From: an uncultured Methanosarcinales archaeon
GTDB taxonomy: Archaea; Nanobdellota; Nanobdellia; Woesearchaeales; CAZPJY01
Length of the DNA: 45,139 nt
Direction: 5' to 3'
Assembly (NCBI GenBank): GCA_964587045.1
Contig: CAZPJY010000015.1
Location: forward strand, 1 to 45,139
Shown here: piece after piece, positions 2,182 to 45,139 of the stretch
Position numbering within the stretch: position 1 is the first letter of the stretch
Layout: the number at the start of each line of letters is the position of its first letter
Made by a program: the position numbers and the translations under genes
The notes under the pieces: model-generated
The model's database searches: none
Told to the model about the DNA's origin: nothing
The model's input: only the letters and a program-made list of their open reading frames with translations

Positions 2182-2185
2182 CTTG

Positions 2186-8243: not shown

Positions 8244-8582
8244 ATGAAATACGCAATCTTGGCTTTCCTGCTTTTCGCAGTCGCCTTCGGGAGCATAGCC
8301 TCAGAGGAGGTCTACCAGGGGCGCGAACTCGCACTGCATGTGAACGTGGTCAATAATGGGGACAGGTCGGCACACGACCTGGCGATAAGGGCATACGTCC
8401 CCGATTTGGGGATTTTCGCCGTCAGCAGGCCCTTCGATTTGGAAAGCGACGACAGCCAGGGAAGAATGATATTCATCGACCTGCCCGCATACGAGATTGG
8501 GCCCGGCCTATACCCCGTCAGGCTCAGCGTCTCCAACGATGACTTCAGGGAGACGCGTTACACGTGGGTATACTTCAACTGA
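8244..8582 (+). CDS. Small secreted Ig-like (CARDB-like) protein
   Basis: GGAGG RBS, signal peptide, V.N.G...A ... PG.YPVR.SV Ig-like pattern. Confidence 0.65.
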   Translation: MKYAILAFLLFAVAFGSIASEEVYQGRELALHVNVVNNGDRSAHDLAIRAYVPDLGIFAVSRPFDLESDDSQGRMIFIDLPAYEIGPGLYPVRLSVSNDDFRETRYTWVYFN

Positions 8583-8583
8583 G

Positions 8584-9177: not shown

Positions 9178-9202
9178 ATAATCACCACCACCCCCTTTGG
9201 CC

Positions 9203-23493: not shown

Positions 23494-23641
23494 TTACCTA
23501 ATCATTTTTCAGGCTTAATCTAACCTTTCCTGAATAATTTCTTTATATTTCGGATCAGATAGAGGTGTCAGGCTCAAAAAATCAGGGCAAGGTAGCAAGC
23601 CCTCAAATGTGCGGAAAATAGGCTCTAGAAGCCTTGAGAAG

Positions 23642-23651
23642 NNNNNNNNNN
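23642..23651. other. Assembly/scaffold gap (10 N)
   Basis: Run of n characters. Confidence 1.
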
Positions 23652-23696
23652 ATAGAGGCTTGCTCCCAGCCCCTGCAAAAACATGAGGTAATGATA

Positions 23697-24971: not shown

Positions 24972-25000
24972 ATTTTTTTATAATTTTTTGATGATACGAA

Positions 25001-26122: not shown

Positions 26123-26127
26123 GAATC

Positions 26128-29294: not shown

Positions 29295-29307
29295 GGAGGA
29301 AGTCAAA

Positions 29308-31590
29308 ATGAAAAAGAAAACTCTCGAGGATTATATTCAGAACATAAAGAACGGGCAGGACCTGATCAACAGGGGGGTAGTGCCCAAGGATTCGACCAAG
29401 ATGATGGCCATCGTCACCATGGAGAGGCTGAAGGCCATCAGGGACAGGCTAAAGGCAGGTATCGACGAGCACACCCTCGGCACTTGGGTCAACGCGATAG
29501 AGTCCCACCCGTCGAATATAGGACCTGAGATAACCAATCCCAGTCTCATCAGGAACTATGCGAAAAGCGGCATGCGAATCGAAGCCACAAGGGATGTCGG
29601 AGGGGCCAAGATAACAGGCAAGAAGGGACGCATAATAAGCGTCAGTAGAGGAAGCCCACAGCCCTACCAAATAGAGTTCGACAATGCGATAAAGGGCAGG
29701 ACCGGCACCAATCTTGGAGGTAGCGCCAAGTCCGGCCACGGCTGGTCGCTCACCAAGAACGACTTCAAGCTCATACTGGACAAGCCACTTGTGGTCGAGA
29801 GCGGCTACACGCTGGCGGAGGCAGTCATTGCCGACGAGAGGCAAGGCGCCATGGTCAGGTTCTCCAAAGACTATGAGGGAGCGATGTGGGACCGAAACGG
29901 CGATCAGATATATGTCAGCAAAAGGAAAATCCCAAAGGGAACCCTCGGAAAGCTCCTCAACGAGCAGGCCGGCAACCTCCTGATCAAGCTCTCTGAGCCT
30001 GTAAAGGAGATCGGCAAGCAGGAGTACGTGCGGGTCAAGGTAAAAGACGTCTACGACACGCTGGAGGCATCCAACCTCGGTCCGCACCTCCCAAAAAATA
30101 GGGAGCTGGAGATATTCAAGGAGTCGCTGCAGCAATTCCTGCCGACAGCTGTCCTGGATTCAGACACGGCTGAGGAGATAATCGTCGCTCTCCTCGCGGG
30201 AAACAAAGACCTCGGCTTCTACGGACCTTGGGGCGGAGGCAAGTCCTTCACCGGCGAGAACATACTGGAAGTCGCCAAGGAGCAGGGGGTCCTCATCAAG
30301 GAGAAGGACTGCCAGATAAACTGCAACCCTTTCAGCATCTTCGACGAGAACTACGCGAAGCTCGTGCCTCCCTGCTCTGAGTGCATGGAGAAGTACGACA
30401 GGAACTACAAGGAGACCGGAGTGTTCCACCCGCCCAGGCCTGAGGACGTGGAGGTCCAGGTCGTCAAGCTCGACATAGGGTTCGGCATCCAGACTGCTGA
30501 AGGAACGACCAAGATGCACCGCGTCGACATGGTCGGAGTCAAGCTCCCAGATTTCAGCGGGCAGGTTAACAAGGACACAAGAAGCTTGGATGGTTTCAGG
30601 TACGGGTTCCTCCCAAAGAGCAACAACGGCTACTTCCTGATTGAGGAGGCTGACAAGCTGCGCGAGGACACGCACAAGAACCTGCTGCAGGCCCAGAACA
30701 ACCAGAGGGTCAAGCCTGACGAGACCGACTTCTACCTGCCCTCGAACCAGCTCATGATTCTCACCGCCAACGACATAGCTGCCTTCGGCCCGGCGGAAAA
30801 CGATAGGTTCGTCTTCATATACATAGGCTACCCGACAGACCCTGATGTTGCTTATGACATCACGAAGGTCAGCTACCACAAGGAGCCGAGACCCATGATG
30901 GAGCTGGACATCGAGGATCCCCACCTCAAGCAACCTAACGGCACGCGGACGGTCCAGATTCCGGTGATACTGGAAAAGGCCATAGAGGCCTTCTACATCA
31001 ACTTCGACAGCAGCTACAAGGGCGAGGGAAAGGAGGTCATATCCCGCTCGACGAGATCGAAGTTCGACGCCCACGACGCCGCAAGGTCGAAGTGGATGGT
31101 CCATAAGCAGTTCATCGATGAGACTCCTGCTTTCCCGGACGAGGAGTTCGTGATGGAAGGCATAAAGTACGCCATGTGGTGGAGGGTCCAGGACCAGGAC
31201 TGGGAGTCATGCCTCAAGGCCAAGGACGACCTTACCAAGTTCATCTTCAAGGAGTTCCCGAAATACGTCACCGAGGAGGCGAAGAAGTGGTGGTGCGACG
31301 TCAATGAGGACATCGCGACCAAGATACCCCGCTTCCCTGGGATCAAGGAGGCCTACACACAGGAGATCGCCCGTTACCACAGCAATCCTGAGTCAGCTAT
31401 CGACAGCTTCAAGGAGGTCAAACAGGCGTACCTGCACCCACATGACGCCAAGGCCAAGGAGGCCCTGATAAAGAATCCATTCATGGACCTCCTCTTCGAG
31501 AGCCAGCCCCATTTCCAAACTACATCGGTAGAACAGGTGCCGGGGCTCGTTGAGTACCTGATATCATTCCAGCCGAAGATGAACAAATGA
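29308..31590 (+). CDS. MoxR/Mg-chelatase ChlI-like AAA+ ATPase with N-terminal extension
   Basis: GPWGGGKS, CQINCNP...PPCSEC insert, G.L.KSNNG.F.IEEADKL, TAN, DRF. Confidence 0.85.
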   Translation: MKKKTLEDYIQNIKNGQDLINRGVVPKDSTKMMAIVTMERLKAIRDRLKAGIDEHTLGTWVNAIESHPSNIGPEITNPSLIRNYAKSGMRIEATRDVGGAKITGKKGRIISVSRGSPQPYQIEFDNAIKGRTGTNLGGSAKSGHGWSLTKNDFKLILDKPLVVESGYTLAEAVIADERQGAMVRFSKDYEGAMWDRNGDQIYVSKRKIPKGTLGKLLNEQAGNLLIKLSEPVKEIGKQEYVRVKVKDVYDTLEASNLGPHLPKNRELEIFKESLQQFLPTAVLDSDTAEEIIVALLAGNKDLGFYGPWGGGKSFTGENILEVAKEQGVLIKEKDCQINCNPFSIFDENYAKLVPPCSECMEKYDRNYKETGVFHPPRPEDVEVQVVKLDIGFGIQTAEGTTKMHRVDMVGVKLPDFSGQVNKDTRSLDGFRYGFLPKSNNGYFLIEEADKLREDTHKNLLQAQNNQRVKPDETDFYLPSNQLMILTANDIAAFGPAENDRFVFIYIGYPTDPDVAYDITKVSYHKEPRPMMELDIEDPHLKQPNGTRTVQIPVILEKAIEAFYINFDSSYKGEGKEVISRSTRSKFDAHDAARSKWMVHKQFIDETPAFPDEEFVMEGIKYAMWWRVQDQDWESCLKAKDDLTKFIFKEFPKYVTEEAKKWWCDVNEDIATKIPRFPGIKEAYTQEIARYHSNPESAIDSFKEVKQAYLHPHDAKAKEALIKNPFMDLLFESQPHFQTTSVEQVPGLVEYLISFQPKMNK

Positions 31591-32225
31591 TGAAGATCGA
31601 GGATTACCGGCGCGTCGACTGCAAGCTCTACCGCACTCCGCCCCTCGACTTCAGCGAAGTCACAAGGGCGGCCCGGGATGCGCTTCTGGAGGCGTGGAAG
31701 CATGAAATCTCAGCAGGCAGAGCCATCGAAGAGCTTTTAGAGGGCGATCTCGCCAAAGGTCTCGCTGAACAGATCAGGGAAAACATCGAGTTCCAGGCCA
31801 GAAACGAACAGGCACAGTTGGACACGTACTACGGAAAGCAGATCGAAGCGCTGCAGAACGGAAAGGAGAAGAAGATCGGCTCGATCGATGAGAAGTACAA
31901 GAGTCTGCTGGAAGAAAGGGAAAAAAAGATCAGCTCGGCCAAGGAGGCTGTCGAGAAGGTTGAGAGGGGCTACGACGCGAGCACCAGGAAGCTGGGCGAG
32001 CTGCAGGAAGAGCTGGCACGGAAAATCAAGGACATGGGCGGCATCGAGAAGTACAACCAGCTGCAGGAGATAAAGGACATGCTCCTCGACGACCAAAAGA
32101 AGCCGCCGAAGAAGAAGGTCAAAGAGACCATAGACACGCTGATCGTAGCAGACAAGAAGGTGCGCAAGAAGGCTGCCCGCAGCGTATGGCGCCGCATCTG
32201 GGACCACATAAGAGAGTACTGGTAA
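31587..32225 (+). CDS. Coiled-coil protein
   Basis: Translationally coupled; E/K-rich heptads; amphipathic basic C-terminus (RSVWRRIWDHIREYW). Confidence 0.75.
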   Translation: MMKIEDYRRVDCKLYRTPPLDFSEVTRAARDALLEAWKHEISAGRAIEELLEGDLAKGLAEQIRENIEFQARNEQAQLDTYYGKQIEALQNGKEKKIGSIDEKYKSLLEEREKKISSAKEAVEKVERGYDASTRKLGELQEELARKIKDMGGIEKYNQLQEIKDMLLDDQKKPPKKKVKETIDTLIVADKKVRKKAARSVWRRIWDHIREYW

Positions 32226-32227
32226 GA

Positions 32228-33580
32228 ATGGCAGACATCCTAACAAAAAGCCTGGAAGATTTCGTCAACCTGTTCGCCAGGAAGTACAAGAGGAGCAAGC
32301 TCTTCCAGAACAAGGTGCTCAATTACCTGGACATCGGTAAGATCCAAAGGCTCGACTTGGGCGTCTCGAAGAGGTTCCTGAAGGGGAGGTACCAGAAGAA
32401 GACTGATGAGATAATCAGGAACTACGCCACTCTCGTTTACAAAGACCTCAAATCCGACGACGTAATCGAGGAAAAGGCCGAAGAGCTGCAGGAGACCGCA
32501 GACACAAAGGAGGAGCACGAAAAAAAAATCGCAGAGACCAAGGAGGCCATCGAGAAGACCTCGAAGGATCTTGAGGAGTCAAAGGTCACATATGAACAGG
32601 AGAAGCTGCAGACGGAGCAGGGCTTCACCGAACGGATACAAAAATCCGAAAGTCAGAGGCTCGAGAAGAGGCAAGAGATCGCACAAAAAAACGACGTCGA
32701 GGAGATTGTCAAGAAGACATTCAAAGACCACCTGCAGTCGACAGGGCTTGTTAGTTTGAATGAGGCGGGCGAGCTTGCCTTCGACGAGCGCCAGATGATG
32801 GACGCGCTCGAGGACAGCTTCCTCGAGGAGATACTCAACGGAATAAACTCGAAGCAGAGTGGTTTTATGAGGAAACTGAAGCGTCGTTACGACGGCCTGA
32901 TCAACCACTTCGACGAGATAGAGGACCCCAACCAGATGGCTGAGGCCAACTGGACTCTTTCGTATATCAATTCAGTCTCCAGGGGGTACAGGTATCCGAC
33001 CTACCCGTTCATAGTTGTGCCGAAACGAAGCAGGCTTGATAAATGCTACCTGGACACCGCGCTTGCCATCGATTCAAGCGGCAGCATGTGGGATAACCAT
33101 CGCTGGGATGCTGCTGTGAAGGTCACCCTTGCCATGCATTCGCTTATGAGGAAGCTCAACCCCAATAACAAGACTTACCTAGCCCACTACTGTTACAGGC
33201 TTCAAGCCCTGGATACGATAACGTTTTACAAGACCATAAAGCCCGGCGGAGGAACCAGGACCAACGAGGCGCTCGAGTGGCTGCTCGAAACCCTCGACCC
33301 TCACGTCCCTTCACTAGCTATCCTCACAACAGACGGCTCTCCTGACGACGTGGACTTGGCAATAAAGGCAGCTAAAAGATTCAAGGAGAGGCCGCTGACA
33401 CTCCTAAGCATGTTCCTAATCGACGGCAACGCGAGGACTGAGAACATCACAAGGAAGCTCGGGAAGGCTGCCGGCCCGGACACGACGGTCATCCCGGTCA
33501 AGAACTACGAGTTGGCTGCAGGAGTAATACTTAACGTTCCCTCCATGCTCAAGAAGATGTATAACATCACAAATTTTTGA
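32228..33580 (+). CDS. Coiled-coil + VWA domain protein
   Basis: MIDAS motifs AIDSSGSM, GGGT.T..AL, ILTTDGSP. Confidence 0.88.
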   Translation: MADILTKSLEDFVNLFARKYKRSKLFQNKVLNYLDIGKIQRLDLGVSKRFLKGRYQKKTDEIIRNYATLVYKDLKSDDVIEEKAEELQETADTKEEHEKKIAETKEAIEKTSKDLEESKVTYEQEKLQTEQGFTERIQKSESQRLEKRQEIAQKNDVEEIVKKTFKDHLQSTGLVSLNEAGELAFDERQMMDALEDSFLEEILNGINSKQSGFMRKLKRRYDGLINHFDEIEDPNQMAEANWTLSYINSVSRGYRYPTYPFIVVPKRSRLDKCYLDTALAIDSSGSMWDNHRWDAAVKVTLAMHSLMRKLNPNNKTYLAHYCYRLQALDTITFYKTIKPGGGTRTNEALEWLLETLDPHVPSLAILTTDGSPDDVDLAIKAAKRFKERPLTLLSMFLIDGNARTENITRKLGKAAGPDTTVIPVKNYELAAGVILNVPSMLKKMYNITNF

Positions 33581-33582
33581 AA

Positions 33583-34236
33583 ATGAGAATAAAAACACTT
33601 TTAGGAATCGCGCTTGCCGGCCTGCTGGCCGCGTCCCCATTGAAGGCCCAAGACAGCCTGGAAGGCTCGCTGGATAACGCATCCACATACTTCTGGCGGG
33701 GAAAGGAGCTGCTGAAAGGATGGATGGGGCAGCCTTCTGTCACCCTCAACAGGGAGAGCCTGTCGACTGGCCTGTGGGCCAACTACGACTACAAGACAGG
33801 CAAAATAACTGAGATCGACTACAGCCTGGGGACTGAAAGGGAGCTGAGAGACATGGCAGTCGCCGGAGGCTTCACCCTGTACGGCTACCCTGACGACACT
33901 CCCAGCACCTTGGAGGTTAATGCCGGGCTTACTGCTGCATTGCTGCTGAGCCCGTCAATTCGCCTGTATCATGACTTCATGCTCGGGTCTTACGCAGAGC
34001 TATCTGCCAAGCACAGCTTCGGTCTGCTTAGGCTCGAAGTCACTCCTTCAGCCCTGGTAGGATACAACCACTACTACGACTGCGATATCAGCGGATTCTC
34101 GCACTGCGAGCTTTCCCTTAGCTGGGACGTGCCGTTCTTCTTCGGGACGAGCGTCAGCCACAGGCTAGCCCACTCCTTCCCAATCAGTGAAGGCTTCGAC
34201 AGGAAGACATACGTAACAGTCGGGCTAAATCTTTAG
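33583..34236 (+). CDS. Secreted beta-barrel-like protein (TorF/Gcw_chp TIGR02001-like)
   Basis: Signal peptide ending LKA; STYFWRG, QPSV, GLWAN, EIDYSLG; alternating beta strands. Confidence 0.7.
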   Translation: MRIKTLLGIALAGLLAASPLKAQDSLEGSLDNASTYFWRGKELLKGWMGQPSVTLNRESLSTGLWANYDYKTGKITEIDYSLGTERELRDMAVAGGFTLYGYPDDTPSTLEVNAGLTAALLLSPSIRLYHDFMLGSYAELSAKHSFGLLRLEVTPSALVGYNHYYDCDISGFSHCELSLSWDVPFFFGTSVSHRLAHSFPISEGFDRKTYVTVGLNL

Positions 34237-35172: not shown

Positions 35173-36918
35173 ATGAAAAGCCTACCCGTAAGGTCAGAGG
35201 ACATAGATCCGACCAGAATCGTTGATACCTCCAGGTACGACCTATTCAGCCTGGTAGGGGAAGGCAGCTGGGGGATAGTGTGGAAGGCATGGGACAAGCG
35301 CCAGCACCAGGATGTCGCGATAAAGATCATCTCTCCCACGGATGAGGCCGCGGCCCAGATGGCCCTCCGCAACCTGACCTACGCAAAAGCGGTGCAGAAG
35401 GAGACAGGCAAGCTCGCCGCGTGCTCGCACGTAGTCCCCAGAAGGGAAGAGACCTCGCCCGAGGGCGTCCCCTACCTGGTAATGCCATTCTACTCCAGCA
35501 ACTTCGCACAGCATATTGAAACAGAGAGGAAGCAAAACGAAAAAGTGACATACTATGACAAAACCAAGACTGGACTTCTGCTCAAGGACATAATAGACTG
35601 GTTCAGCGACATCGCCGCAGGCATATCAGAGATACACTCAGAATACCACAGGGCGCACGGGGACATCAAGGAGGACAACATCCTCGTGGACAATAAAGGC
35701 AAGTTGCTGCTGGGAGACCTGGGTACCTCAACCTGCGCGACCGTAGGCCGCTCGGTGTCCCCAAGGCACCACATGGGACACGTTCTGACCAGGGACCCGA
35801 GGATGTTTGCAGACGGAGCCCATCCGGATTTCAAGTCTGACTACTTCGCATTCGCAAGCCTCATGTACAAGATGTTTTCCGGCAAGCACCTGCTCGAGGA
35901 AGAGATAGGGGCGGCTGGTCCCAGGGGCATAGACGGCCTGATGCATTCTTTTACTGATGAGGAAGGGGACCTAAACTCTAAATTCCACTCTCTCCTCGAG
36001 GAACGGGTAGGCAAATCTGAGATGCCCGACGAGTTCAAGGACCTGATAATGATGATGTACGGCAGCAAAAGTACTGAGACGCTCGAGCTTTCCCTCTTCG
36101 AAAAATTCGACCTGGACAAGTGCTACAGGAGAGCTGTCAGCGCATACCAAGACAGGATGTCCAGGACCGCGGGCAAAAGGGAGCTGATTAGCAAGATGAA
36201 GAGGTGGGGGCGCAATATCGCATTGGCTACATTCATCGGGGCAAGCATTATTGCAGGATGCCAGTGGATGAATTACCTTTCGCCTCCTGACACCTTCGGC
36301 CGCGAGGAGATAGAGTACCGCCTCACCAAGAGAATGGCAGCCGATGCGGACATCATCCTAGAGACCGAGAAGGTGTACGAGCCTTACATGAAAGCAGAAT
36401 TCGTAGGACCTGTCCCGTTCAAGGATCTGCTGGACTACCACCTCAAGAAGATGGTCCCGCACTCAGTGGTGGATGAGATGATCAAAGTGTGGCTTGAGAC
36501 GTGCAACGAGACTGGCATCGACGCGCTTCCTCGCAACATGAGGCAAAGGGAGATGGCCATGCCGCCGCAGCTCATGGGAGTACCTGAAACCGAATACAAA
36601 GCTGAATACCAGACGCTTAGTGACAGGCTCAAGGATATGCTGCCTGTGTTCCTTGGAGCCTGCCAAAAGGATCCCTTCTCGAAAGTTATCGACCTGGAGG
36701 ACGCTATCGTGCTCTGCCTCGAAGGGCCCCAGAAACTGAGGTACCTGAAGAGCTCGTCTGAGAGCACTGATTTCGGCGCATACAAGGACGCGCGGGATTC
36801 TCACGGCAATCAGATGCTGTATTTTACGTACGCACCGTTCATACAGCAGTTCATTTACAACATCCAGCAAAACGAGATGCTAGGCAAGCTGGTCCGCGTA
36901 AAGGGGGCGGAAGGATGA
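35173..36918 (+). CDS. Hanks-type Ser/Thr protein kinase with TM helix and C-terminal domain
   Basis: GEGSWGIV, VAIK, HGDIKEDN, DLG; TM IALATFIGASIIAGC. Confidence 0.9.
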   Translation: MKSLPVRSEDIDPTRIVDTSRYDLFSLVGEGSWGIVWKAWDKRQHQDVAIKIISPTDEAAAQMALRNLTYAKAVQKETGKLAACSHVVPRREETSPEGVPYLVMPFYSSNFAQHIETERKQNEKVTYYDKTKTGLLLKDIIDWFSDIAAGISEIHSEYHRAHGDIKEDNILVDNKGKLLLGDLGTSTCATVGRSVSPRHHMGHVLTRDPRMFADGAHPDFKSDYFAFASLMYKMFSGKHLLEEEIGAAGPRGIDGLMHSFTDEEGDLNSKFHSLLEERVGKSEMPDEFKDLIMMMYGSKSTETLELSLFEKFDLDKCYRRAVSAYQDRMSRTAGKRELISKMKRWGRNIALATFIGASIIAGCQWMNYLSPPDTFGREEIEYRLTKRMAADADIILETEKVYEPYMKAEFVGPVPFKDLLDYHLKKMVPHSVVDEMIKVWLETCNETGIDALPRNMRQREMAMPPQLMGVPETEYKAEYQTLSDRLKDMLPVFLGACQKDPFSKVIDLEDAIVLCLEGPQKLRYLKSSSESTDFGAYKDARDSHGNQMLYFTYAPFIQQFIYNIQQNEMLGKLVRVKGAEG

Positions 36919-38447
36919 GCATCAAGATAAAGCTTCCAATCAGCGCGTATGATATCCAGAAAGCCTTGGGCAAGGAGACATGGAAAGGCGTCGTCCTAGG
37001 CAGGAAAAAGACCGACGGCTCATCATGGGCCCTGAAGTTCTACGAGCCCAGCGAGACAGCGAGGAAACAGGCAGAGGAGCGCAGCCTCACCCTCGAGGAG
37101 TTCTGGCGAAAGGAGGTGCTGGGGGGACTCAACCGCGGCTACACCAACCTTGCCTTCAACACCTTGGAGAGGGCTGACAACGGCACGGTGTTCCTAGCTG
37201 AGGAATACATCGACCGTTTCCTTTCCGACTATCTGGAAGTCCAGCCGTCCCTAACCCGGGATGAGGTGCTTTCGGTTGCCAAAGGGCTCGCTCAAGGACT
37301 GGCTGACATGCACAGGCACGGCTTCACCCACGGGGACCTGAAGCCTGAGAACATAGGCTACACACTTGACGAAATAGTGAAGATTTCTGATTACGGCACG
37401 TCCAGCGTGTTCTCCAAGGAGCAGAAGAACAGGCGCGACAACATGGGACACCTCCAGACACGCGCCCCTGAGAACTTCAGAGAAGGCAGCAAGCCGACAC
37501 CCAGTAGCGATGTGTGGTCGTTCGGCGCCATGATATACCGGCTCATCACAGGGGAGTATCCCTTCGAAGAAGAGCTGAAGAATAATCCTGACTACTTCAA
37601 AGGCATCAACGAAGGGAGTCTGCAAAAAAACACCATCTCCTCCAGATTGAAGCAACTGCAGCAGAAAGGAACAAGCCAAGAGCTGCAATGCCTAATCGAG
37701 GACTGCCTGCAGCCCGACCCCAGAGCCCGTCCAAGCGACGGAAGCGAAGTGGTCAAGAGGCTAACACAATTGATGCCAAAGGAGCCGTTCATGGTTACGT
37801 TAGGCAAGTCCTTCAAGAGACATCTGGGCTGGCTTGTGCCTGTCGCAGCGCTTTCGCTCTCTTGGTACGCAGCTGCGACGCACGAGCCGAGCAAGCTAGC
37901 CTGGCCCGAAGCGGAGCAGGTGGGGCCAATGGAAATGTCTTCAGAAAAAGAATATCAGGTGAAGCGGGAAAACCTAGGGCAGGAACCGATAACCTGCTTC
38001 ATAGGTTTTGACCAGCTCTCGGTCAAGTGCGCGACCAACGACAAGCGCGTCGCCTACTTACTTCAGACCCATGACCAGGCCTGGCACTACCTCGGGGTAC
38101 TGAGATCCCCGGAGAGGAAAAACAACGCTCAGATAAGCATGTGGTGCACTTACACCCCTCAAGGAGAAAGGTTTCCTGGAGATGGAGGGAACGATTACAG
38201 GGTCATCGCAAAGGCGATCGAGGTCGGCCTATCAGAGGGCATGTCGGAGGACGGAGCGCTGGATCTTGAGGACGCCTTGACCATCTCACGGGTCGGTGTC
38301 AAAACGCTCAGGCAGGCGCAGAAGGCCGCAAACAGCTTTGAATTTATGGATTACATCGCAGCCAGGAACAGCAGCGGAGAATACATCATCCCAGAAAAGG
38401 AGCAGCGGTTCATCAAGACCTGGCTTCGGCTGACCTTCATTGACTAG
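36915..38447 (+). CDS. Second Hanks-type Ser/Thr protein kinase with TM helix and C-terminal domain
   Basis: WALK, HGDLKPEN, DYG, RAPE, SDVWSFG; TM LGWLVPVAALSLSWYAAA. Confidence 0.9.
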   Translation: MSIKIKLPISAYDIQKALGKETWKGVVLGRKKTDGSSWALKFYEPSETARKQAEERSLTLEEFWRKEVLGGLNRGYTNLAFNTLERADNGTVFLAEEYIDRFLSDYLEVQPSLTRDEVLSVAKGLAQGLADMHRHGFTHGDLKPENIGYTLDEIVKISDYGTSSVFSKEQKNRRDNMGHLQTRAPENFREGSKPTPSSDVWSFGAMIYRLITGEYPFEEELKNNPDYFKGINEGSLQKNTISSRLKQLQQKGTSQELQCLIEDCLQPDPRARPSDGSEVVKRLTQLMPKEPFMVTLGKSFKRHLGWLVPVAALSLSWYAAATHEPSKLAWPEAEQVGPMEMSSEKEYQVKRENLGQEPITCFIGFDQLSVKCATNDKRVAYLLQTHDQAWHYLGVLRSPERKNNAQISMWCTYTPQGERFPGDGGNDYRVIAKAIEVGLSEGMSEDGALDLEDALTISRVGVKTLRQAQKAANSFEFMDYIAARNSSGEYIIPEKEQRFIKTWLRLTFID

Positions 38448-39357
38448 TCTTCTCGACTATCCGCGAGAGTATCGGGCTCGCTCCCACCTGGATGAGGCGG
38501 TATAACTCCCTGATTTGGGAGAGCAGGATTGTCTGGTCGCCCTTGCCCTTTGCCATCGAGTCCAGCAGCCCTCCGAAATGGTATTTCCTGCGGAGGCTAT
38601 TCAGCCTGTGTATACTGGAGATATCCTCCTTGGTGAAAGCCTGGTAGAACAGTTCATAATAGCCTTTCAGTCCGGCCAGGTATTCGTTCACTTCAGCGCC
38701 GGGCTTGATCTTTCTGTCAAGCGCTGTCTTATATATATAGTAATAGGAATGCTGGAAGTGCATCAGGAAGGTCAGGAGCTCCCAGTCAAGCACCGGGTTG
38801 TGCTCGTACTTCTCCCTGATCAGGACACGCCTGCAGAACAGCACGAACCTGTCCTGCTGCGTCCTAAGAGTCGATACCGCTCCCATGCGTTCGAGCCTGC
38901 TGGAGGTGAAGTCCTCTGTAACCACGTTGTGCATCTCCTTTACCATGAGGAAGATCCGGCGGAGCAGGGCGTCGTACTTCTCGTCTGTCGGCTCTGAAAT
39001 GTTCTCTATCGTACACCCTCCGGGTGTCCTGTCGGTCACCTCGAATCCTAATAGGGACTCTGCTGTGAATTTTTCGATGCGTCCGATCCCGGGCTCATCC
39101 AGGCCGATTATCCTTACAGAGTCCATACCATTCCTGTACATGTGGGACAGCAGTGTCTCCAGGTCAGCACGGTTTTGGTCCGTTACCTCGATTGTCGCCT
39201 CCTTTCTCTGCCTGACAGCGGTGCCGACTATGAGGTTGACGCCGTCGTCGGATATCTCGACCTCCTCTCCGGAAGACAACCCTTTCCTGTCGATCCACTT
39301 CTTGGGCAGGTATATAGTGAATCCTCCTCCGCCCTGCTTAATAAGCTTCCTTCTCAT
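38437..39357 (-). CDS. Archaeal AbrB-PhoU-type transcriptional regulator
   Basis: N-term RKLIKQG....IYLPKKWI...L..G.EV (AbrB), Y..G.D.V.I, GFEV, helical PhoU-like C-terminus. Confidence 0.85.
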   Translation of the reverse strand: MRRKLIKQGGGGFTIYLPKKWIDRKGLSSGEEVEISDDGVNLIVGTAVRQRKEATIEVTDQNRADLETLLSHMYRNGMDSVRIIGLDEPGIGRIEKFTAESLLGFEVTDRTPGGCTIENISEPTDEKYDALLRRIFLMVKEMHNVVTEDFTSSRLERMGAVSTLRTQQDRFVLFCRRVLIREKYEHNPVLDWELLTFLMHFQHSYYYIYKTALDRKIKPGAEVNEYLAGLKGYYELFYQAFTKEDISSIHRLNSLRRKYHFGGLLDSMAKGKGDQTILLSQIRELYRLIQVGASPILSRIVEKTSQ

Positions 39358-39377
39358 GGCGCCGTGTGAGGCCTTTG

Positions 39378-39394
39378 TATATTTAACCTTTTCG
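39378..39394 (-). promoter_or_regulatory. BRE/TATA promoter of the regulator gene
   Basis: Minus strand reads CGAAAAGGTTAAATATA about 20 nt upstream of the ATG (leaderless-type spacing). Confidence 0.7.
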
Positions 39395-39397
39395 TTT

Positions 39398-39437
39398 TTA
39401 ATATCAGTGATATGATTAATATCAGTTAGATATTAGT
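39398..39437. repeat. Direct repeats in the divergent promoter
   Basis: TTAATATCAGT at 39398-39408 and 39416-39426; degenerate GATATTAGT at 39429-39437. Confidence 0.65.
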
Positions 39438-39482
39438 AATAAAAAGTATCACTTAGTAGTAATAACATCATAAGGAGTTGAT

Positions 39483-40928
39483 ATGATGGATGAAACATCA
39501 TGGAAAGAGAAGGCCCTGAAGGCCATGAAGATTCTAGAAACATTGTCCCAGCCCCCCCTCCAGCTGGCAACGGTAGTGGGCGTCGACGAGAAGACGGTCG
39601 AAATCGGCATGCCTTCCGGGGCGCAGTACATCGTCCATTACGACCCGCGCCTGAAAGGAAAGCTCAAGCTGGGCCAGGACGTGCGAATATCGCCCGAGTC
39701 CTACGCAGTGGTGAGCATAGAAGGCAAGGTGAGGACCCACTCCGCAGCAGTTGTTGAAGACGTCCTCAAGGACGGAAGGGTCAAGATATCCTCGCCGAAA
39801 GGGGAAAAGGTGATCCAGACCGCAGTCGAGGTCAAGGCAGGCGAAAACGTCATCGTCGACAACAGCTTCAGCGTCGTCCTGGAGAACCTGGGCAACAGCA
39901 GCAAGGCATACAGCATAGAGAAGGTGCCCAAAGTCCCCTGGAAAAGCATAGGCGGGCTTGAACAGACCATATGCAAGATAAAGGAGACAGTCGAGCAGCC
40001 ATTCCTCTACAAAGAAGTGTATTCGAAGTTCCCGACTAGGCAGCCCCCGAAGGGCGTGCTGATCTTCGGACCGCCCGGATGCGGAAAGACCATGATAGGA
40101 AAGGCTATAGCCTACAACCTGGCAGTCCGCATGCGAGAGAAGGAGAACAAGGACGTGAACGGATACTTCCTCTACGTGGCAGGACCGGAATTCCTGCAGC
40201 GCTTCGTCGGAGTCGGCGAGGCCAAGGTCAGGGAGCTCTTCGGCAATGCGCGGGAGACCGCCGCGCAGAACGGTGACCCGGTCGTCATCTTCGTCGACGA
40301 GCCTGAAGCAGTGCTCAGACAGAGGGGCACGGGCAAGTCATCGGACGCCCACGACTCGATAGTCAACCAGTTCCTGGTGGAGATGGACGGGCTCAACTCG
40401 CTGGAGAATGTGATGGTACTCCTGGCGACCAACAGGCACGAGCTCCTGGACTCAGCGGTCGTGAGGCCAGGAAGGATAGACAAGAAGATCTATGTCCCGA
40501 GACCCGACCAGCAGGGAGCAGAGTCCATATTCTCAATCTACCTAAAGGACCTGCCGCTGCACAGGAAGGGCTTCAACAGCAAGCCTGTCAAGCAGTACGC
40601 CCAACACGCAGCTTCACAGGTGTTCGAAAAGCCAAGGCCGGTGCTGGAAGTGAAGTACATGGACGGCAACAGCGACACTATCCACTACAAGAGCATGTTC
40701 AGCGGCGCAAGCGTGGTGTCCATAGTCAACAGGGCCATAGACTTCGCCATCAACAGAGGCATCAAGGGGAAAAGCTCAGAGATAGTTCTGGATGACCTGA
40801 CCGACGCAGTCGAGATGGAGTACGAGGAGAACAGGGCGCTGCACAACCAGTTCACGCCGAATGATATGCGGGACGTCGTGGGTGACAATTTCAAGCAGAT
40901 CGTGGAAGTCACAGCTGCCTACAGGTGA
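39483..40928 (+). CDS. arc: Proteasome-associated ATPase ARC/Mpa
   Basis: LSQPP then tandem OB-like region; GPPGCGKT; YFL...GPE; RGTGKSSD; RPGRID; ARC-specific LEVKY.DG...SGA.V.SIV.RA...AI and E..EN..L....P.D. Confidence 0.92.
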   Translation: MMDETSWKEKALKAMKILETLSQPPLQLATVVGVDEKTVEIGMPSGAQYIVHYDPRLKGKLKLGQDVRISPESYAVVSIEGKVRTHSAAVVEDVLKDGRVKISSPKGEKVIQTAVEVKAGENVIVDNSFSVVLENLGNSSKAYSIEKVPKVPWKSIGGLEQTICKIKETVEQPFLYKEVYSKFPTRQPPKGVLIFGPPGCGKTMIGKAIAYNLAVRMREKENKDVNGYFLYVAGPEFLQRFVGVGEAKVRELFGNARETAAQNGDPVVIFVDEPEAVLRQRGTGKSSDAHDSIVNQFLVEMDGLNSLENVMVLLATNRHELLDSAVVRPGRIDKKIYVPRPDQQGAESIFSIYLKDLPLHRKGFNSKPVKQYAQHAASQVFEKPRPVLEVKYMDGNSDTIHYKSMFSGASVVSIVNRAIDFAINRGIKGKSSEIVLDDLTDAVEMEYEENRALHNQFTPNDMRDVVGDNFKQIVEVTAAYR

Positions 40929-40935
40929 GGCGAAG

Positions 40936-42732
40936 ATGGCTATGAAGCGAATAATGGGGACTGAGACAGAGTACGGCATAGTCGGAGGTGACGCGCACGC
41001 GGTCGTCCGCGCCTACCAAGGCAGGAAAGCGTCCCACGAGAATTTCCAAAGCACCAACCAATCCGCAGTCCCAGGATTCACCGACATCGGCGGCCACGTC
41101 GGAGGCGACTACGGCAGCGTCGAGGACCAGCTTTCCGAGCTGTACGGAGAAGGATATTACCCGCAGAGCTCCCAGCATAGCATTCCTAGGATAAGCTACC
41201 AGCCACCAGGCTACAGCATACCTGATGATATTATCGACAACGGATCCCGGTTCTACGTGGACATGGGACACCCTGAGATGAGCATCGCAGAGACCTCCAA
41301 CCCGAGGGACGCTGTCATCTGGGACAAGGCAGGTGAGCTCATCGTCCTGGGTTCAGCAAAGCGTGCAGGTCAGATCAAGATCTACAAGAACAACTGTGAC
41401 GGCAAAGGCACAAGCTACGGCTGCCACGAGAACTACCTGCTAAAGAGGATCAGCCCAAAAAAGTTCGAAGAGGGGCTGACCAAGGCGCTTCTCCCTTTCT
41501 TCATCACCAGGCAGATCTACTGCGGGACCGGAAAGGTCGGGATAGAGAGTCCATCAAGCTATTCAGGCGTCTACTACTACGGCAAGGCTGTGAAGACCGA
41601 CCCTTACAAAGAGCAGATGGACAAAGCCAAGCAGGCCATATCAGATCTTGAGAGGTATTTCCTGGACACTCCTGACTTCAAGGAGGTCGCAAAGGTCCTG
41701 GCCAGATTCGCAAAGATCAGGGAGGACAGTGGCGAGCAGGAGGTCTACCAGCTCTCGCAGAGGGCTGATTTCATGGAATCGGTCATAGGGCTGCAGACCA
41801 CCCAGAACAGGCCCATCATGAACACCCGCGACGAGCCTCACGCCAACAGGGACAAGTACATGAGGCTGCACGTCATCTGCGGCGACGCCAATATGAGCGA
41901 AGTCGCACATTACCTCAAGATGGGGACCACATCGCTCGTGCTGGACCTGATTGAGGACAAATTGGCGCCTAACATTGAGGTGGTCAAGCCGGTGAGACAG
42001 GTGCAAAGGATCTCCTGGGACCTGCAGAGGAAGTGGCCTGTCGAGATTTCAGGAAACAAGACTATCTCAGCGGTCGACATCCAGAGGCTGTACCTGAAAG
42101 CTGCGCAGGACGCGTACACTGGAAAGGATAAGCTCACAGACGACATCCTGGGCCGCTGGGAGCACACCCTTGACACGCTGGAGCGCGACCCCATGGAGCT
42201 CTCGGGCACGATAGACTGGGTGATCAAGCTGAACTTGCTGACCCATCTGATGGACAAGCACGGCGTGGGGATGAACGACCAGGTAATCAAGAACGCCGCG
42301 CTGCAGTACCACGATGTGGACAGGGAAGCGAGCCTTTTCTACTACCTGCAAAAAGCCGGAGCGGTCGAAAGGATTGTGACAGACGAGGAGATAGCCTTCG
42401 CTGTGCTGAACCCACCTAGCGACACCAGGGCTTACCTGCGCGCAAAAGTCGGCGGGTTAAAGGCCGTCGACGATGTCGACTGGGGCGGATTTCGCATCCG
42501 CGTTGGAGATGAGCGCAAGCAAATTGATCTCGATGAGCCTTTCGCCGGAACAGAGGAGCAGGTAGGAGCGCTAGTGAATAATTACCCAGGACCAAAGCAG
42601 TTCGTAAAGGCCCTGGAAGCGATAGACGGGATAAAGGTGTCAACATACACGCCCCGTGTCTACACTCAGTCAAGAATCATCCAATATCAGTACGGCAAAA
42701 GGCCGAAAAACAAGAACCGGAGGTTTTGGTAA
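40936..42732 (+). CDS. dop: Pup deamidase/depupylase Dop
   Basis: RIMGTETEYGI, long Dop-loop insert, NGSRFYVDMGHPEMS, YKNNCDGKG.SYGCHENYL, SQRADF, RPIMNTRDEPHA, RLHVICGDANMSE, LQYHD. Confidence 0.88.
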   Translation: MAMKRIMGTETEYGIVGGDAHAVVRAYQGRKASHENFQSTNQSAVPGFTDIGGHVGGDYGSVEDQLSELYGEGYYPQSSQHSIPRISYQPPGYSIPDDIIDNGSRFYVDMGHPEMSIAETSNPRDAVIWDKAGELIVLGSAKRAGQIKIYKNNCDGKGTSYGCHENYLLKRISPKKFEEGLTKALLPFFITRQIYCGTGKVGIESPSSYSGVYYYGKAVKTDPYKEQMDKAKQAISDLERYFLDTPDFKEVAKVLARFAKIREDSGEQEVYQLSQRADFMESVIGLQTTQNRPIMNTRDEPHANRDKYMRLHVICGDANMSEVAHYLKMGTTSLVLDLIEDKLAPNIEVVKPVRQVQRISWDLQRKWPVEISGNKTISAVDIQRLYLKAAQDAYTGKDKLTDDILGRWEHTLDTLERDPMELSGTIDWVIKLNLLTHLMDKHGVGMNDQVIKNAALQYHDVDREASLFYYLQKAGAVERIVTDEEIAFAVLNPPSDTRAYLRAKVGGLKAVDDVDWGGFRIRVGDERKQIDLDEPFAGTEEQVGALVNNYPGPKQFVKALEAIDGIKVSTYTPRVYTQSRIIQYQYGKRPKNKNRRFW

Positions 42733-42733
42733 G

Positions 42734-42916
42734 ATGGAAGACCAAAAACAAATTTACCAACCGGGCGAAGAGCCCAACAAGGAACTGTACACAGGCAAGA
42801 AGAAGCTAGACCAGGTTAAGAAGCTCAAGAATGAAAATAGCCTTCTGGACGGGCTTGATAAGTTGGTCTCGAAAGGCAACCTTGCCGACCAGTACAAGCA
42901 GCAGGGCGGCCAGTGA
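42734..42916 (+). CDS. pup: Prokaryotic ubiquitin-like protein Pup (60 aa, C-terminal GGQ)
   Basis: ATG 1 nt after the dop stop; MEDQKQ...NSLLDGLDKLVSKGNLADQYKQQGGQ matches the Pup C-terminal pattern LLDEID.VL......YVQKGGQ. Confidence 0.9.
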   Translation: MEDQKQIYQPGEEPNKELYTGKKKLDQVKKLKNENSLLDGLDKLVSKGNLADQYKQQGGQ

Positions 42917-42918
42917 GG

Positions 42919-44661
42919 ATGGATCCCATCTTCACTTTCGTTCCTTCTTATGGAAGGAAACGGATATTCGGGACGGAGAACGAGTATGGGGTAGGTGGAA
43001 GGACTCGGGGCCTGCCTGGTTTCATCGCAAACGGCGGAAAGATCTACTCAGACTGTGGCCATATCGAGTACGCGACGCCCGAGTGCAGCAACCCGCTAGA
43101 AGCGGTGATCTACAACAAGGCAGGCGAGCTGCTGGCGCAGAAGTATGCAGACAAGATATACAAAAACAACGTCGACTCGAGGGGCAATACCTTCGGGGCT
43201 CACGAGAACTATTTCACAAAAGCCAGCTTTAAACGACTCAGGACCGTAATTCCTTTTCTGGTAACGAGGCAAATCTATGCCGGAACAGGAAAGCAAATGC
43301 GATACGGATTCAGCATAAGCCAAAGGTCATGTCACATTGAAAAAAATGAAAATAGTACTTCTTCAGATCACCGTGCGATTCTTTGCACCAAGAAGGAGAG
43401 TCTTGCAAACGATTCCGAATGGATGAGATTGCATCTAATACTTGGTGATGCCAACATGTCAGAGGTCGCTGAGTTCCTGAAAATCGGGACTACAGGTCTG
43501 GTTCTTGACCTCGTGGAGGACGGGTTGGAACCACGATTAGAATACAACAATATTTACTCAGTACAAGATCTGCACTCAATCTCAGAATCTACCTCAGACT
43601 GGCAAATTCGTCAGGGAGAAAAAGCCACAGACATCCAAAGGGGATACTTAAAAGCCGCAAAGAAGCACTACAAGGGACGCGACGAGATAACAGACACCAT
43701 CCTCGCCCTGTGGCAAGACACCCTAGACAAGCTCGACCGAGACCCTTCAGCGTTAATAGGCCGCGTGGACTGGATCACCAAGAAAGCCTTGATTGATCAG
43801 TACGCACAAGCCAATAATCTGGATATGACAAGTCTGATTCTCAGAAATATCGACCTGCAGTACCACGACACGGACCGAGAAAGGGGCCTGTTCTACGCGC
43901 TGCAAAAACAGGGCAAAGTGGAGCGGCTAGCAACAGACGAGATGATAAAGCATGCTATGCACGTGCCGCCCAATGACACTAGGGCTTCTCTTAGGGGTGC
44001 ACTCGCTAAGCAGAGTGATATATATAGAATTGAGTGGTATTCATTTCATCTGAAGAATTTGGTTATTCAATTAGCCGACCCATTCCAAGCAGAACTAAGT
44101 GAAGAACAAAAAGAGAGGGTAGCAAACATCAGAACTGACCTCCCAAAAGATTACCTTAAGAAGCTGGACCGGCTACCTAAGGACTGTCTCAATCTCATAA
44201 CGCAGGATATTCTCAAATTTATTGTAATAAAAAATTCGTACTCTCAGAAGTATGTGTACCAACACTTGTATCCAGCCGAGGATAAGCTTCCAAAACCTTA
44301 TATGATAATCCAGGTAGAAAGGAACCTTGGCAAAGAGATAGGCAGCATGCCGGATAGATACTTTTACGGTGGTACTTTAGACCAAGTCCCACTCAAAACC
44401 AAAGGGATAATCAACCGTGTTGAAAATGGATGGTTCCATAACAAAATAGAGGCAATTTTGGAAAACGGTCGTACTTGGGCTCTGGAGGGAGAGGAGGTAG
44501 CGCTCTTCTGCATCGATAAAAATATCAAAGACTTGGTTGAAGACCTAACCTCCCACGACATCTCTTTCAAAAAACAGATAGACGAAGTAATCCACGATAA
44601 AGTTCTCATAACAGCAGTCAACAACAGAGACGTTTTCAGGAGGATGTGGGAAGATGAGTGA
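42919..44661 (+). CDS. pafA: Pup--protein ligase PafA-like with ~190 aa C-terminal extension
   Basis: RIFGTENEYG, NGGKIYSDCGHIEYATPEC (no Dop loop), KNN.DSRGNTFGAHENY, PFLVTRQ, RLHLILGDANMSE, DLQYHD, PP.DTRA.LRG. Confidence 0.85.
   Translation: MDPIFTFVPSYGRKRIFGTENEYGVGGRTRGLPGFIANGGKIYSDCGHIEYATPECSNPLEAVIYNKAGELLAQKYADKIYKNNVDSRGNTFGAHENYFTKASFKRLRTVIPFLVTRQIYAGTGKQMRYGFSISQRSCHIEKNENSTSSDHRAILCTKKESLANDSEWMRLHLILGDANMSEVAEFLKIGTTGLVLDLVEDGLEPRLEYNNIYSVQDLHSISESTSDWQIRQGEKATDIQRGYLKAAKKHYKGRDEITDTILALWQDTLDKLDRDPSALIGRVDWITKKALIDQYAQANNLDMTSLILRNIDLQYHDTDRERGLFYALQKQGKVERLATDEMIKHAMHVPPNDTRASLRGALAKQSDIYRIEWYSFHLKNLVIQLADPFQAELSEEQKERVANIRTDLPKDYLKKLDRLPKDCLNLITQDILKFIVIKNSYSQKYVYQHLYPAEDKLPKPYMIIQVERNLGKEIGSMPDRYFYGGTLDQVPLKTKGIINRVENGWFHNKIEAILENGRTWALEGEEVALFCIDKNIKDLVEDLTSHDISFKKQIDEVIHDKVLITAVNNRDVFRRMWEDE
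43043..43127 (+). repeat. 85-bp repeat copy 1 (within pafA-1)
   Basis: 84/85 identical to 44787-44871 by manual comparison. Confidence 0.9.
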
Positions 44662-45139
44662 GCCATTGTTCACATCGGTTCCCAAGTACGGGCGGCAGAG
44701 AATATTCGGAACAGAGAACGAGTACGGAGTAAAAGACTGGGACGGACATCTCGAGGAAAGAGAATTCATATGGAATGGTGCGCGACTCTACTCAGACTGT
44801 GGCCATATCGAGTACGCGACGCCCGAGTGCAGCAACCCGCTGGAAGCGGTGATCTACAACAAGGCAGGCGAACTTATCGCGCAGAGATATGCAGGTAAGG
44901 TCTACAAGAATAATCTGGACTGGAAAGGGAACGCCTTCGGAGCGCATGAGAACTACTCAGGTAATGCTAATGCCAGAAATATTCTCAAGGCACTCCCCTT
45001 CTTGGTGACCAGGCAGATATTTGCCGGCTCAGGCTGGCTTTTGTCAAACGGAGAGTTCCACGTATCCCAACGCAGTCACCTTATGGAATATTTATATAAT
45101 GGTCTGTCCATGTGTGATAGGAGCATCTATAATATTAAG
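44654..45139 (+). CDS. pafA: Second PafA-like paralogue (3'-partial, not in the ORF track)
   Basis: Manual translation MSEPLFTSVPKYGRQRIFGTENEYG...NGARLYSDCGHIEYATPECSNP...KNNLDWKGNAFGAHENY...LPFLVTRQIFAGSG...SQRS; open to the window end. Confidence 0.88.
   Translation, partial: MSEPLFTSVPKYGRQRIFGTENEYGVKDWDGHLEEREFIWNGARLYSDCGHIEYATPECSNPLEAVIYNKAGELIAQRYAGKVYKNNLDWKGNAFGAHENYSGNANARNILKALPFLVTRQIFAGSGWLLSNGEFHVSQRSHLMEYLYNGLSMCDRSIYNIK
44787..44871 (+). repeat. 85-bp repeat copy 2 (within pafA-2)
   Basis: 84/85 identical to 43043-43127. Confidence 0.9.

Follow-up and report, generated by a model that had tools for sequence, protein, structure and literature searches.

Does a small-genome archaeon encode a bacterial-type system for marking proteins with Pup? 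The question is raised by the final 5.7 kb of a 45,139-nucleotide (nt) stretch of DNA (GenBank assembly GCA_964587045.1, contig CAZPJY010000015.1). This whole stretch, hereafter the window, is one complete scaffold (C15) of a genome that we refer to as G000. At 39483-45139 it carries five co-directional, tightly packed open reading frames (ORFs) on the + strand. A preliminary description made from the letters alone had recognised there five closely coupled genes for an ATPase, a Dop-like enzyme, a 60-amino-acid (aa) protein ending in GGQ and Pup ligase-family enzymes, and family searches bear out this gene set. We consider it likely that the locus is a genuine, intact Pup-type tagging operon in the chromosome of a DPANN archaeon of the Nanoarchaeia/Woesearchaeota type. 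Its features are as follows.

39483..40928, + strand: ARC/Mpa-like AAA+ ATPase, 481 aa; best NCBIfam match TIGR03689 (pup_AAA)
40936..42732, + strand: Dop-like enzyme, putative deamidase/depupylase, 598 aa; Pfam Pup_ligase 451.8 bits
42734..42916, + strand: Pup-like tag, 60 aa, C-terminal GGQ
42919 (ATG) or 42913 (GTG) to 44661, + strand: PafL1, Pup_ligase-family paralogue 1, 580 or 582 aa; Pup_ligase 337.3 bits
44299..44508, + strand: SH3-like small beta-barrel in the C-terminal extension of PafL1, from a hidden Markov model (HMM) and an AlphaFold2 (AF2) domain model
44654..45139 (contig end), + strand: PafL2, Pup_ligase-family paralogue 2, N-terminal 162 aa only; Pup_ligase 117 bits, profile positions 70-212

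The genes are separated, in order, by 7, 1 and 2 nt, and PafL1 and PafL2 overlap by 8 nt. For the Dop-like gene we place the start at ATG 40936, having discarded the alternatives at 40933 and 40861 from the reading of the junction. All three Pup_ligase genes of the window exceed the gathering score of the Pfam family (PF03136, 25 bits), with 451.8, 337.3 and 117.0 bits, as do two matches on another contig of the same genome, C23 (283 and 182 bits). The E-values of the family matches, from 1e-33 to 1e-135, are far beyond chance. With pup_AAA and Dop as the best NCBIfam families of the first two genes, the Pup-type gene set is real.

The operon appears to continue beyond the end of the scaffold. 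The reverse complement of C23 opens in the codon phase in which C15 ends, and it opens with the C-terminal part of a Pup_ligase gene (profile positions 223-439). PafL2 therefore appears to run on from C15 into C23, a junction that we infer from phase and profile; a nucleotide overlap of the two contig ends was looked for and not found. Further along C23 lie two ORFs without a family match (226 and 129 aa), followed by a complete third paralogue, PafL3 (434 aa). In total, the genome thus has a single Dop-like gene beside three or more ligase-like paralogues. The 226- and 129-aa ORFs are situated between and after the ligase paralogues (L030, G000:C23, 9908-10904 and 13113-14179), and C23 also carries three tandem paralogous small ORFs (104-120 aa) that have a common N-terminal motif and no family match. 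These unmatched ORFs may be accessory proteins or substrates.

The second gene of the operon is closest to Dop. It scores 413.2 bits against the NCBIfam model for Dop (TIGR03688) and 331.0 bits against that for PafA (TIGR03686), and among solved structures it matches Dop (PDB 5LRT) at E 1.1e-94 and PafA (4B0T) at E 8.1e-66. According to the available text of Cui 2021 (PMC8599861), every Dop orthologue, and no PafA homologue, has a Dop-loop, a conserved stretch of 40-65 inserted residues that precedes strand beta-2. An insert of about 85 residues occupies this position in the archaeal enzyme, between the GhExE motif and the strand bearing the catalytic Asp. It has conserved residues of its own in 23 homologues; the Trp and the acidic motif of Cui 2021 were not seen in it. 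The alpha-loop carries the Dop-type residues F, E, G and L at positions 25, 26, 29 and 30 of Hecht 2020 (four of the nine positions in Table 1 of that paper), and PafA-type residues at none. The catalytic motifs (GhExE, catalytic Asp) are invariant in 23 aligned sequences of this Dop-like type (DopL), and the nearest bacterial relatives are 33-37% identical. In a Pacearchaeota locus (L033, 8004-9690) the Dop-like gene consists of two overlapping ORFs (415 and 148 aa), which could reflect a frameshift or a sequencing error, or else a gene that is split.

The first gene encodes an AAA ATPase (Pfam AAA, 111.8 bits) with weak Prot_ATP_ID_OB matches, both under their cut-offs. Against NCBIfam it scores 381.6 bits with pup_AAA (profile positions 29-509 of 512), 221 with the PAN subfamily and 187 with CDC48. 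The protein has a short N-terminal helix, two OB-like domains and the AAA module, and it ends in AAYR. Judged by these profiles, the ATPase is of the ARC/Mpa type and not of the PAN type. In a tree it clusters with the Pup-linked ATPase of a genome of the same order, G394 (support in the Shimodaira-Hasegawa-like approximate likelihood ratio test, SH-aLRT, 96). The tree contains four clades, each well supported (window/G394, Pup-linked ATPases of Pacearchaeota, ATPases linked to E1 and JAB genes, and bacterial ARC), with a weakly supported branching order among them.

The third gene has the form expected of Pup. The available text of Iyer 2008 (PMC2588565) characterises Pup by a length of 50-90 aa, a C-terminal G-[EQ] and a gene adjoining a PafA-family gene. 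The archaeal protein is 60 aa long and ends in GGQ, and its gene is spaced 1 nt from the Dop-like gene before it and 2 nt from PafL1 after it, a position that is kept in G394, L031 and L033. The counterpart in L031 reaches 17.3 bits with Pfam Pup (PF05639; cut-off 27; E 0.0093). When 38,913 frames were searched with an HMM of 15 actinobacterial Pups, the four best-ranking frames were the small ORFs behind the Dop-like gene of four archaeal loci (E 0.03-2.5). A second HMM, built from three positional counterparts, had the candidate tag as its sole match among the 36,091 six-frame ORFs of the genome (E 4.5e-7). The link to the Pup family is thus transitive, running by profile comparison through the counterparts. 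A predicted complex of PafL1 with the tag scored 0.80, against 0.01 for the best control; this score was reached by 116 of 157 solved complexes and by 2 of 215 mismatched pairs. The prediction runs agree in at least 76% of contacts, with a predicted local distance difference test (pLDDT) score for the partner of at least 55. The final 25 residues of the tag lie in the groove, with the C-terminus at the residues around the catalytic Asp. Because solved PafA-Pup and Dop-Pup complexes exist, we read this model as a likeness to them and not as binding.

The remaining genes encode the PafL paralogues. The AF2 model of PafL1, with pLDDT above 90 over residues 1-410, adopts the fold of Dop and PafA, members of the glutamine synthetase (GS) fold, as the reading of the preliminary description requires. 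Foldseek placed it first with Dop (4B0R, E 8.1e-32, TMt 0.76) and PafA (4BJR, E 4.8e-30, TMt 0.70), and then with YbdK, glutamate-cysteine ligases and glutamine synthetases. The GhExE motif, the catalytic Asp and a HENY motif are invariant in 29 aligned PafL homologues. PafL1, PafL2 and PafL3 are without a Dop-loop; residue 37 of PafL1 aligns to residue 84 of Dop and residue 54 of PafA. In two quick trees, which together with one approximately unbiased (AU) test make up our phylogeny of these proteins, the PafL copies form a clade of their own with the paralogue of G394 (SH-aLRT 97-100). The copies of the window are nearest one another, and the expansion is therefore lineage-specific.

PafL1 and PafL2 have long C-terminal extensions, about 185 aa in PafL1, where pLDDT falls below 50 in the full-length model. 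The PafL1 extension gave no usable hit in the ESM Atlas, and BLAST among the extensions of the paralogues and homologues returned nothing at E 0.01. A segment of about 70-80 aa within it had six remote hits among 1.84 billion representatives (E 8e-8 to 6e-4). Its HMM also matches the N-termini of three paralogues in an operon of G117 that combines an ARC-like ATPase with genes for a ubiquitin-like (Ubl) protein, a JAB peptidase and an E1 (E 6e-23 to 4e-22), and a 616-aa protein in the corresponding operon of G280 (E 6e-9). Modelled as a domain, the segment is a five-stranded SH3-like barrel (pLDDT 86.5). VIA-align found PetP, KOW, Mib/HERC2, CPH and Tudor domains as structural matches, with Z up to 8.0, which indicates a common fold only; Foldseek found no match for the barrel at E 0.001 or below.

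From the families to which these proteins belong, the following course of events may be proposed. The disordered 60-aa tag would be made with a C-terminal Gln, which the Dop-like enzyme would deamidate to Glu; the same enzyme would probably also strip the tag from substrates. The loop-less PafL1, PafL2 and PafL3 would use ATP to phosphorylate the tag Glu and would then attach it to lysine residues of target proteins; their C-terminal extensions, which differ from one another and in PafL1 include the SH3-like barrel, may choose targets or partners. The ARC-like hexameric ATPase would then recognise the tag through its short N-terminal coiled coil and unfold the tagged protein, which would most likely be passed to the cell's own archaeal 20S proteasome, encoded elsewhere. 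A divergent AbrB-type regulator probably controls the operon.

Several observations weigh against reading the locus as a working Pup system, and we give them here and with the alternatives to which they lend weight. The curated family cut-offs are not reached: the ATPase (381.6 bits) stays below the equivalog cut-off of TIGR03689 (504.75), the Dop-like enzyme (413.2 bits) below that of Dop (492.3) and PafL1 (262.6 bits) below that of PafA (551.3). By these cut-offs the enzymes of the archaeal branch are not one-to-one orthologues of actinobacterial Dop and PafA. The tag itself has no match in Pfam (E up to 10, including PF05639) or in NCBIfam (E up to 0.1). No expression data were found, and no RNA run is listed among the public runs for this stretch.

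The alternative that survives best concerns the fate of the tagged proteins. The tag and the ATPase could form a regulatory or remodelling system, acting by tag-dependent unfolding, disassembly or reversible modification, that hands nothing to the 20S proteasome. A search of the window and of 15.5 kb of C23 found no proteasome subunit gene (PF00227) in the operon or near it; the preliminary description had already remarked that prcB and prcA are missing between pup and the ligase gene. The cell's 20S proteasome, with alpha and beta genes on C14 and C38, is already served by a PAN-like ATPase (488.8 bits, just below its cut-off) and Cdc48 (1075 bits). Proteasome-free Pup loci are described for Plesiocystis and Rhodopirellula in the available text of Iyer 2008 (PMC2588565).

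The tail of the ATPase bears on the same point from both sides. Its Ala-Tyr-Arg end with a penultimate Tyr presumably resembles proteasome-docking tails, and the bacterial hits carry tails of the GQYL type. The position of this Tyr is not conserved: in the 11 closest ATPase homologues 1-10 residues follow the Tyr, so that conservation lends no support to docking on the 20S particle. We had considered a docking tail of the HbYX type as a conserved feature and rejected it for this reason. Hand-over to the 20S proteasome is the weakest link of the mechanism. Against tagging without degradation stand the penultimate Tyr of the window ATPase itself, the 20S genes of the genome and a distant relative (G225) in which a proteasome subunit gene comes straight after pup. 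On balance we regard a system with no outlet to the proteasome as unlikely, though it deserves serious attention, and we retain delivery to the archaeal 20S proteasome as the preferred course. In either case the Pup system is an addition to the usual archaeal machinery and not its replacement, because the same cell encodes the PAN-like ATPase, Cdc48, 20S and ThiF-type E1 proteins. The ThiF-type E1-like genes (468 and 475 aa) lie in two clusters (G000:C11:16201-21288 and G000:C6:11817-18726), of which the first also encodes a protein with a JAB domain and one of 168 aa in which an internal GG stands close to the end, and the second an AAA protein. Pup-type and E1-type tagging thus seem to coexist in one cell.

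A second alternative is that the PafL proteins are not ligases. They could be extra depupylases or deamidases, or catalytically altered tag-binding proteins, with ligation carried out by the Dop-like enzyme or not at all. Every PafL copy scores higher with the Dop model than with the PafA model (PafL1, 277.8 against 262.6 bits; PafL3, 245.1 against 209.9 bits). As a family they do not have a PafA-like alpha-loop: the INTRDEPHAD stretch, conserved in Dop and PafA, is altered, and most members have Dop-like residues at several of the alpha-loop positions of Hecht 2020 (Table 1). In the unconstrained tree of the cleaned alignment, all archaeal Pup_ligase sequences separate from all bacterial ones (SH-aLRT 99), with PafL beside archaeal DopL and not bacterial PafA. 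The expectation of two PafA-like ligases in the preliminary description has to be modified to at least three paralogues, in a separate archaeal clade, that lean towards Dop in their model scores. Given these scores and the altered alpha-loop, ligase activity is suggested mainly by the missing Dop-loop and by the need for a ligase. The absence of the loop is nevertheless the PafA-side state in the available text of Cui 2021 (PMC8599861), and its removal helps to convert Dop to a ligase in that of Hecht 2020. A Gln-ended tag with a dedicated Dop-like enzyme makes sense only if the product is ligated. The AU test, moreover, does not reject a clade of PafL with actinobacterial PafA (p 0.58), although it lends no support to their orthology either. 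We therefore think it quite improbable that PafL proteins lack ligase function, and treat them below as the putative ligases of the system.

The third alternative questions the host. G000 has 1.6 Mb in 50 contigs and is rated 100% complete and 0.53% contaminated; it is a small archaeal genome of the Nanoarchaeia/Woesearchaeota type, in keeping with the DPANN-like host that the preliminary description had proposed. The window contains a 10-N scaffold gap at 23642-23651. In a scan of 30 ORFs the clear archaeal markers all fell to the left of it, namely an IF2 of the aIF5B type, Trm1, an ABC protein of the ABCE1 type that has Fe-S domains, HerA, KTI12 and an alanyl-tRNA synthetase, so that the gap stands between the archaeal markers of the scaffold and the operon. 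Three public salt-marsh metagenome runs contain part of the stretch (shares 0.33, 0.15 and 0.06); their contigs are mostly a few hundred bases long, none of them spans the gap, and the bin 23335-24001 is uncovered. A few close homologues are labelled as bacterial metagenome-assembled genomes (MAGs), from Planctomycetota (P0026, P0271, P0277) and Taylorbacteria (P0266).

The evidence on the other side is of several kinds. Tetranucleotide frequencies of the right half correlate with the rest of the genome as well as those of the left half (0.954 and 0.961; mean of 49 equal-sized chunks, 0.907), and the operon alone gives 0.84 (250 equal-sized chunks: mean 0.825, standard deviation 0.147). Six paralogues of the regulator that adjoins the operon are encoded on other contigs of its own genome, and genomes of the same order contain homologues of it. 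G394, also of that order, repeats the arrangement of ATPase, Dop-like gene, small ORF with a GGQ end and ligase paralogue on a 16-kb contig (GC 0.39) without N. This locus is flanked by genes of archaeal or eukaryotic type: prefoldin, a DRG-type GTPase (MMR_HSR1_Xtn and TGS) and diphthamide synthase. The closest named database homologues are from archaea labelled Candidatus Nanoarchaeia, Nanoarchaeota, Pacearchaeota or Woesearchaeota, and of the 80 species-representative loci kept, the nearest three are archaeal by title and the other 77 bacterial. Each of the nine Pup_ligase-bearing genomes in our phylum sample is at least 90% complete and at most 5% contaminated, and in run X1 the depth is similar, if low, on either side of the gap. 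That 23652-45139 and C23 are bacterial and reached this genome through an assembly or binning artefact, the chimera that the preliminary description had itself named as a danger, is hence highly improbable, in spite of the gap, of its not being bridged by any public contig and of the few bacterial MAG labels.

The region to the left of the operon contains two further features that belong to the locus.

38437..39357, - strand: divergent regulator with an AbrB/SpoVT-like N-terminus, 306 aa; Pfam MazE_antitoxin E 0.0016, 18.8 bits (below the cut-off of 24.7)
39358..39482, no strand: AT-rich divergent intergenic region, possibly with operator and ribosome-binding site

The regulator has full-length homologues (27% identity, E 1e-35 to 1e-39) that in G280 and G117 are encoded divergently ahead of genes for ARC-like ATPases and in G335 lie beside a Pup_ligase remnant. 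The intergenic region has a 16-nt direct repeat in two copies (39398-39413 and 39416-39431; starts 18 nt apart, 88% identity), two imperfect inverted repeats and an AGGAG 6 nt ahead of the ATPase ATG. Directly upstream of the regulator and Pup locus, two adjoining genes encode eukaryotic-type Ser/Thr protein kinases (581 and 510 aa; window 35173-38447). Eight tightly coupled + strand ORFs (219-760 aa) adjoin the N gap on its right (23634-34236). One of them encodes an AAA ATPase (26119-27915) with weak similarity to TRIP13/IetA in PADLOC, and the other seven are unmatched in Pfam. Across the ten upstream genes PADLOC reported generic kinase and AAA similarities only.

How far is such a system distributed among DPANN archaea? 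In the order sample 2 of 41 genomes carry Pup_ligase genes, and in the phylum sample 9 of 401 do, the own genome counted in both. The archaeal Pup branch is thus rare, at about 2% of the sampled phylum genomes. The preliminary description had called for a survey of DPANN genomes for the same gene order: the order arc-dop-pup-ligase does recur, in G394. A Dop-like gene and a second paralogue are both present only in G000, G394 and G225. Four of the nine genomes are single-copy, and two hold fragments with internal stops. The latter are Pup_ligase genes broken by TAG or TAA stops (L028, G009:C2, 7229-8748; L029, G335:C65, 5226-5423), which, as sequences, are evidence of the loss of the system in some lineages.

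Two of the four single-copy genomes have minimal loci. In L024 (G256:C11, 7312-8904) and L026 (G042:C7, 7388-8918) a lone Pup_ligase gene precedes a small ORF whose C-terminus is SGE or SAE, and neither a Dop-like gene nor an ATPase adjoins it. They may represent a deamidase-free, proteasome-independent form. The locus of G225 (L022, G225:C21, 7343-13464; GC 0.57) contains genes for a ligase paralogue, ARC and a Dop-like enzyme, and the proteasome subunit gene comes after a small ORF with an SGQ end. The ATPase of this locus groups inside the clade of bacterial ARC, and the stretch contains 69 N; this locus looks like an independent bacterial-style acquisition or a mis-binned contig.

The ATPase has a wider distribution than the tag. 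ARC-like ATPases that score as well as that of the window occur in four genomes without a Pup_ligase match (G117, G277, G280 and G004). We scored three candidates per genome, and the resulting count of 5 of 401 genomes is a lower bound, at least the ATPase of G394 having been missed. By homology, the ATPase of the window belongs to a DPANN-wide ARC-like family that is elsewhere coupled to Ubl/JAB/E1 operons:

L123 (G280:C11), 1843-9311: ARC-like ATPase with Ubl/JAB/E1 genes
L124 (G117:C1), 1744-10170: ARC-like ATPase with Ubl/JAB/E1 genes
L125 (G277:C57), 1477-7650: ARC-like ATPase locus that includes E1

In G280 and G117 the order is divergent AbrB-type regulator, ATPase, a protein of about 140 aa with GG and two to three residues at its end, Prok-JAB peptidase and a two-part ThiF E1. 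These look like ubiquitin-like tagging operons of DPANN archaea built on the same ATPase family, and no published description of them was found in a limited literature search. Among the database proteins P0142-P0183, many ATPases of the clade that holds the E1/JAB-linked ones end themselves in a conserved GG-Lys-type tail (e.g., GGKTK or GGK).

Where did the archaeal Pup system come from? Horizontal acquisition, as the preliminary description had it, is not demonstrated by the data: our trees do not place the archaeal sequences inside Actinomycetota or Armatimonadota, the composition of the operon is that of its genome, and the loci of relatives with the same system range in GC from 0.36 to 0.66. 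Even an archaeal origin of ARC and Pup is conceivable, as a quick ATPase tree rooted on PAN places the bacterial ARC clade among the archaeal clades (support 88-91). We put forward, tentatively and as a reading that may well not hold as a whole, that DPANN archaea have an old Pup branch of their own and not a recent loan from Actinobacteria. One family of ARC-like unfoldases would be the shared receiver for two unrelated tags, a disordered Pup attached by GS-fold ligases or a beta-grasp-type Ubl processed by E1 and JAB enzymes, with the tag modules swapped behind the same ATPase. The single bacterial PafA would be replaced by a set of paralogues with variable C-terminal adaptors, such as SH3-like barrels, which would choose targets in the manner of an E3 and feed the archaeal 20S proteasome.

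In the available text of Iyer 2008 (PMC2588565), Hecht 2020, Cui 2021 (PMC8599861) and the 2025 'Pupdates' review, Pup systems are assigned to bacterial phyla only. Our search, which did not extend to subscription journals, found no paper linking pupylation, Pup or PafA with DPANN, Woesearchaeota, Nanoarchaeota or Pacearchaeota. Public databases already contain homologues under automatic names, for example 'PafA2 family protein [Candidatus Nanoarchaeia archaeon]', which means that what appears to be new is the reading of the sequences and not the sequences themselves. New here are also the observations that ARC-like ATPases of sister genomes head Ubl/JAB/E1 operons and that the barrel domain of PafL1 recurs in those operons.

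If the system is intact in archaea, a bacterial-type degradation tag meets the ancestral proteasome machinery (PAN, Cdc48, 20S) within one cell. The locus would also provide a natural example of multiple Pup ligases that differ in the domains appended to them, which bears on how the choice of pupylation targets becomes specific. The connection of the same ATPase family with Ubl/E1/JAB operons is a testable model of the swapping of tag systems on a common unfoldase, and the compact enzymes, with the wide GC range of their hosts, could widen the toolbox of pupylation-based proximity labelling.

The closest known counterpart is the Pup-proteasome system of Actinobacteria. Common to both are enzymes of the Pup_ligase fold, an ARC-type ATPase with OB domains, a GGQ tag whose gene adjoins a ligase-family gene, and the 5' order arc-dop-pup; in both, the Dop-like enzyme has a long insert at the position of the Dop-loop and the other paralogues have none. 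The archaeal operon differs in its host and in the absence of prcB and prcA. It has at least three ligase-like paralogues instead of one PafA, which is the sole Pup ligase in the available parts of the literature, and two of them, PafL1 and PafL2, bear long C-terminal extensions. All three enzyme types are below the NCBI equivalog cut-offs. The archaeal ATPase is shorter by about 130 aa, has a much reduced coiled coil and ends in AAYR instead of a GQYL-type tail, and the Dop-loop insert is without the conserved Trp and acidic motif reported in the available text of Cui 2021 (PMC8599861).

Among other bacteria, the nearest relatives of the Dop-like gene (33-37% identity) are in the Pup-like loci of Armatimonadota/Chthonomonadaceae, Bipolaricaulota, Fraserbacteria and Nitrospinota. 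Each examined locus has two paralogues, which are, as in the archaeon, weakly separable by the Dop and PafA models (e.g., 317.7 against 303.9 bits). These loci nevertheless fall on the bacterial side of the main split in the tree, and their ATPases have a different tail.

Within DPANN archaea, the Ubl operons of G280, G117 and G277 have a homologous ARC-like ATPase (about 38-39% identity), and those of G280 and G117 share in addition the homologous divergent AbrB-type regulator and the same SH3-like barrel in accessory proteins. They differ in the tag, of about 140 aa with GG and two to three further residues (G280, G117), in the use of a ThiF-type E1 and JAB, and in having no member of the Pup_ligase family. 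The archaeal PAN-20S and Cdc48-20S systems with tags of the SAMP/Urm1 type, finally, are represented in the same cell by the PAN-like ATPase, Cdc48, 20S and ThiF-type E1 proteins. The Pup-type operon is set apart from them by a disordered Pup in place of a beta-grasp tag, by a ligase that would act through gamma-glutamyl phosphate in place of adenylation by E1, and by an ATPase of a different clade from PAN (381.6 bits with pup_AAA against 221 with the PAN subfamily).

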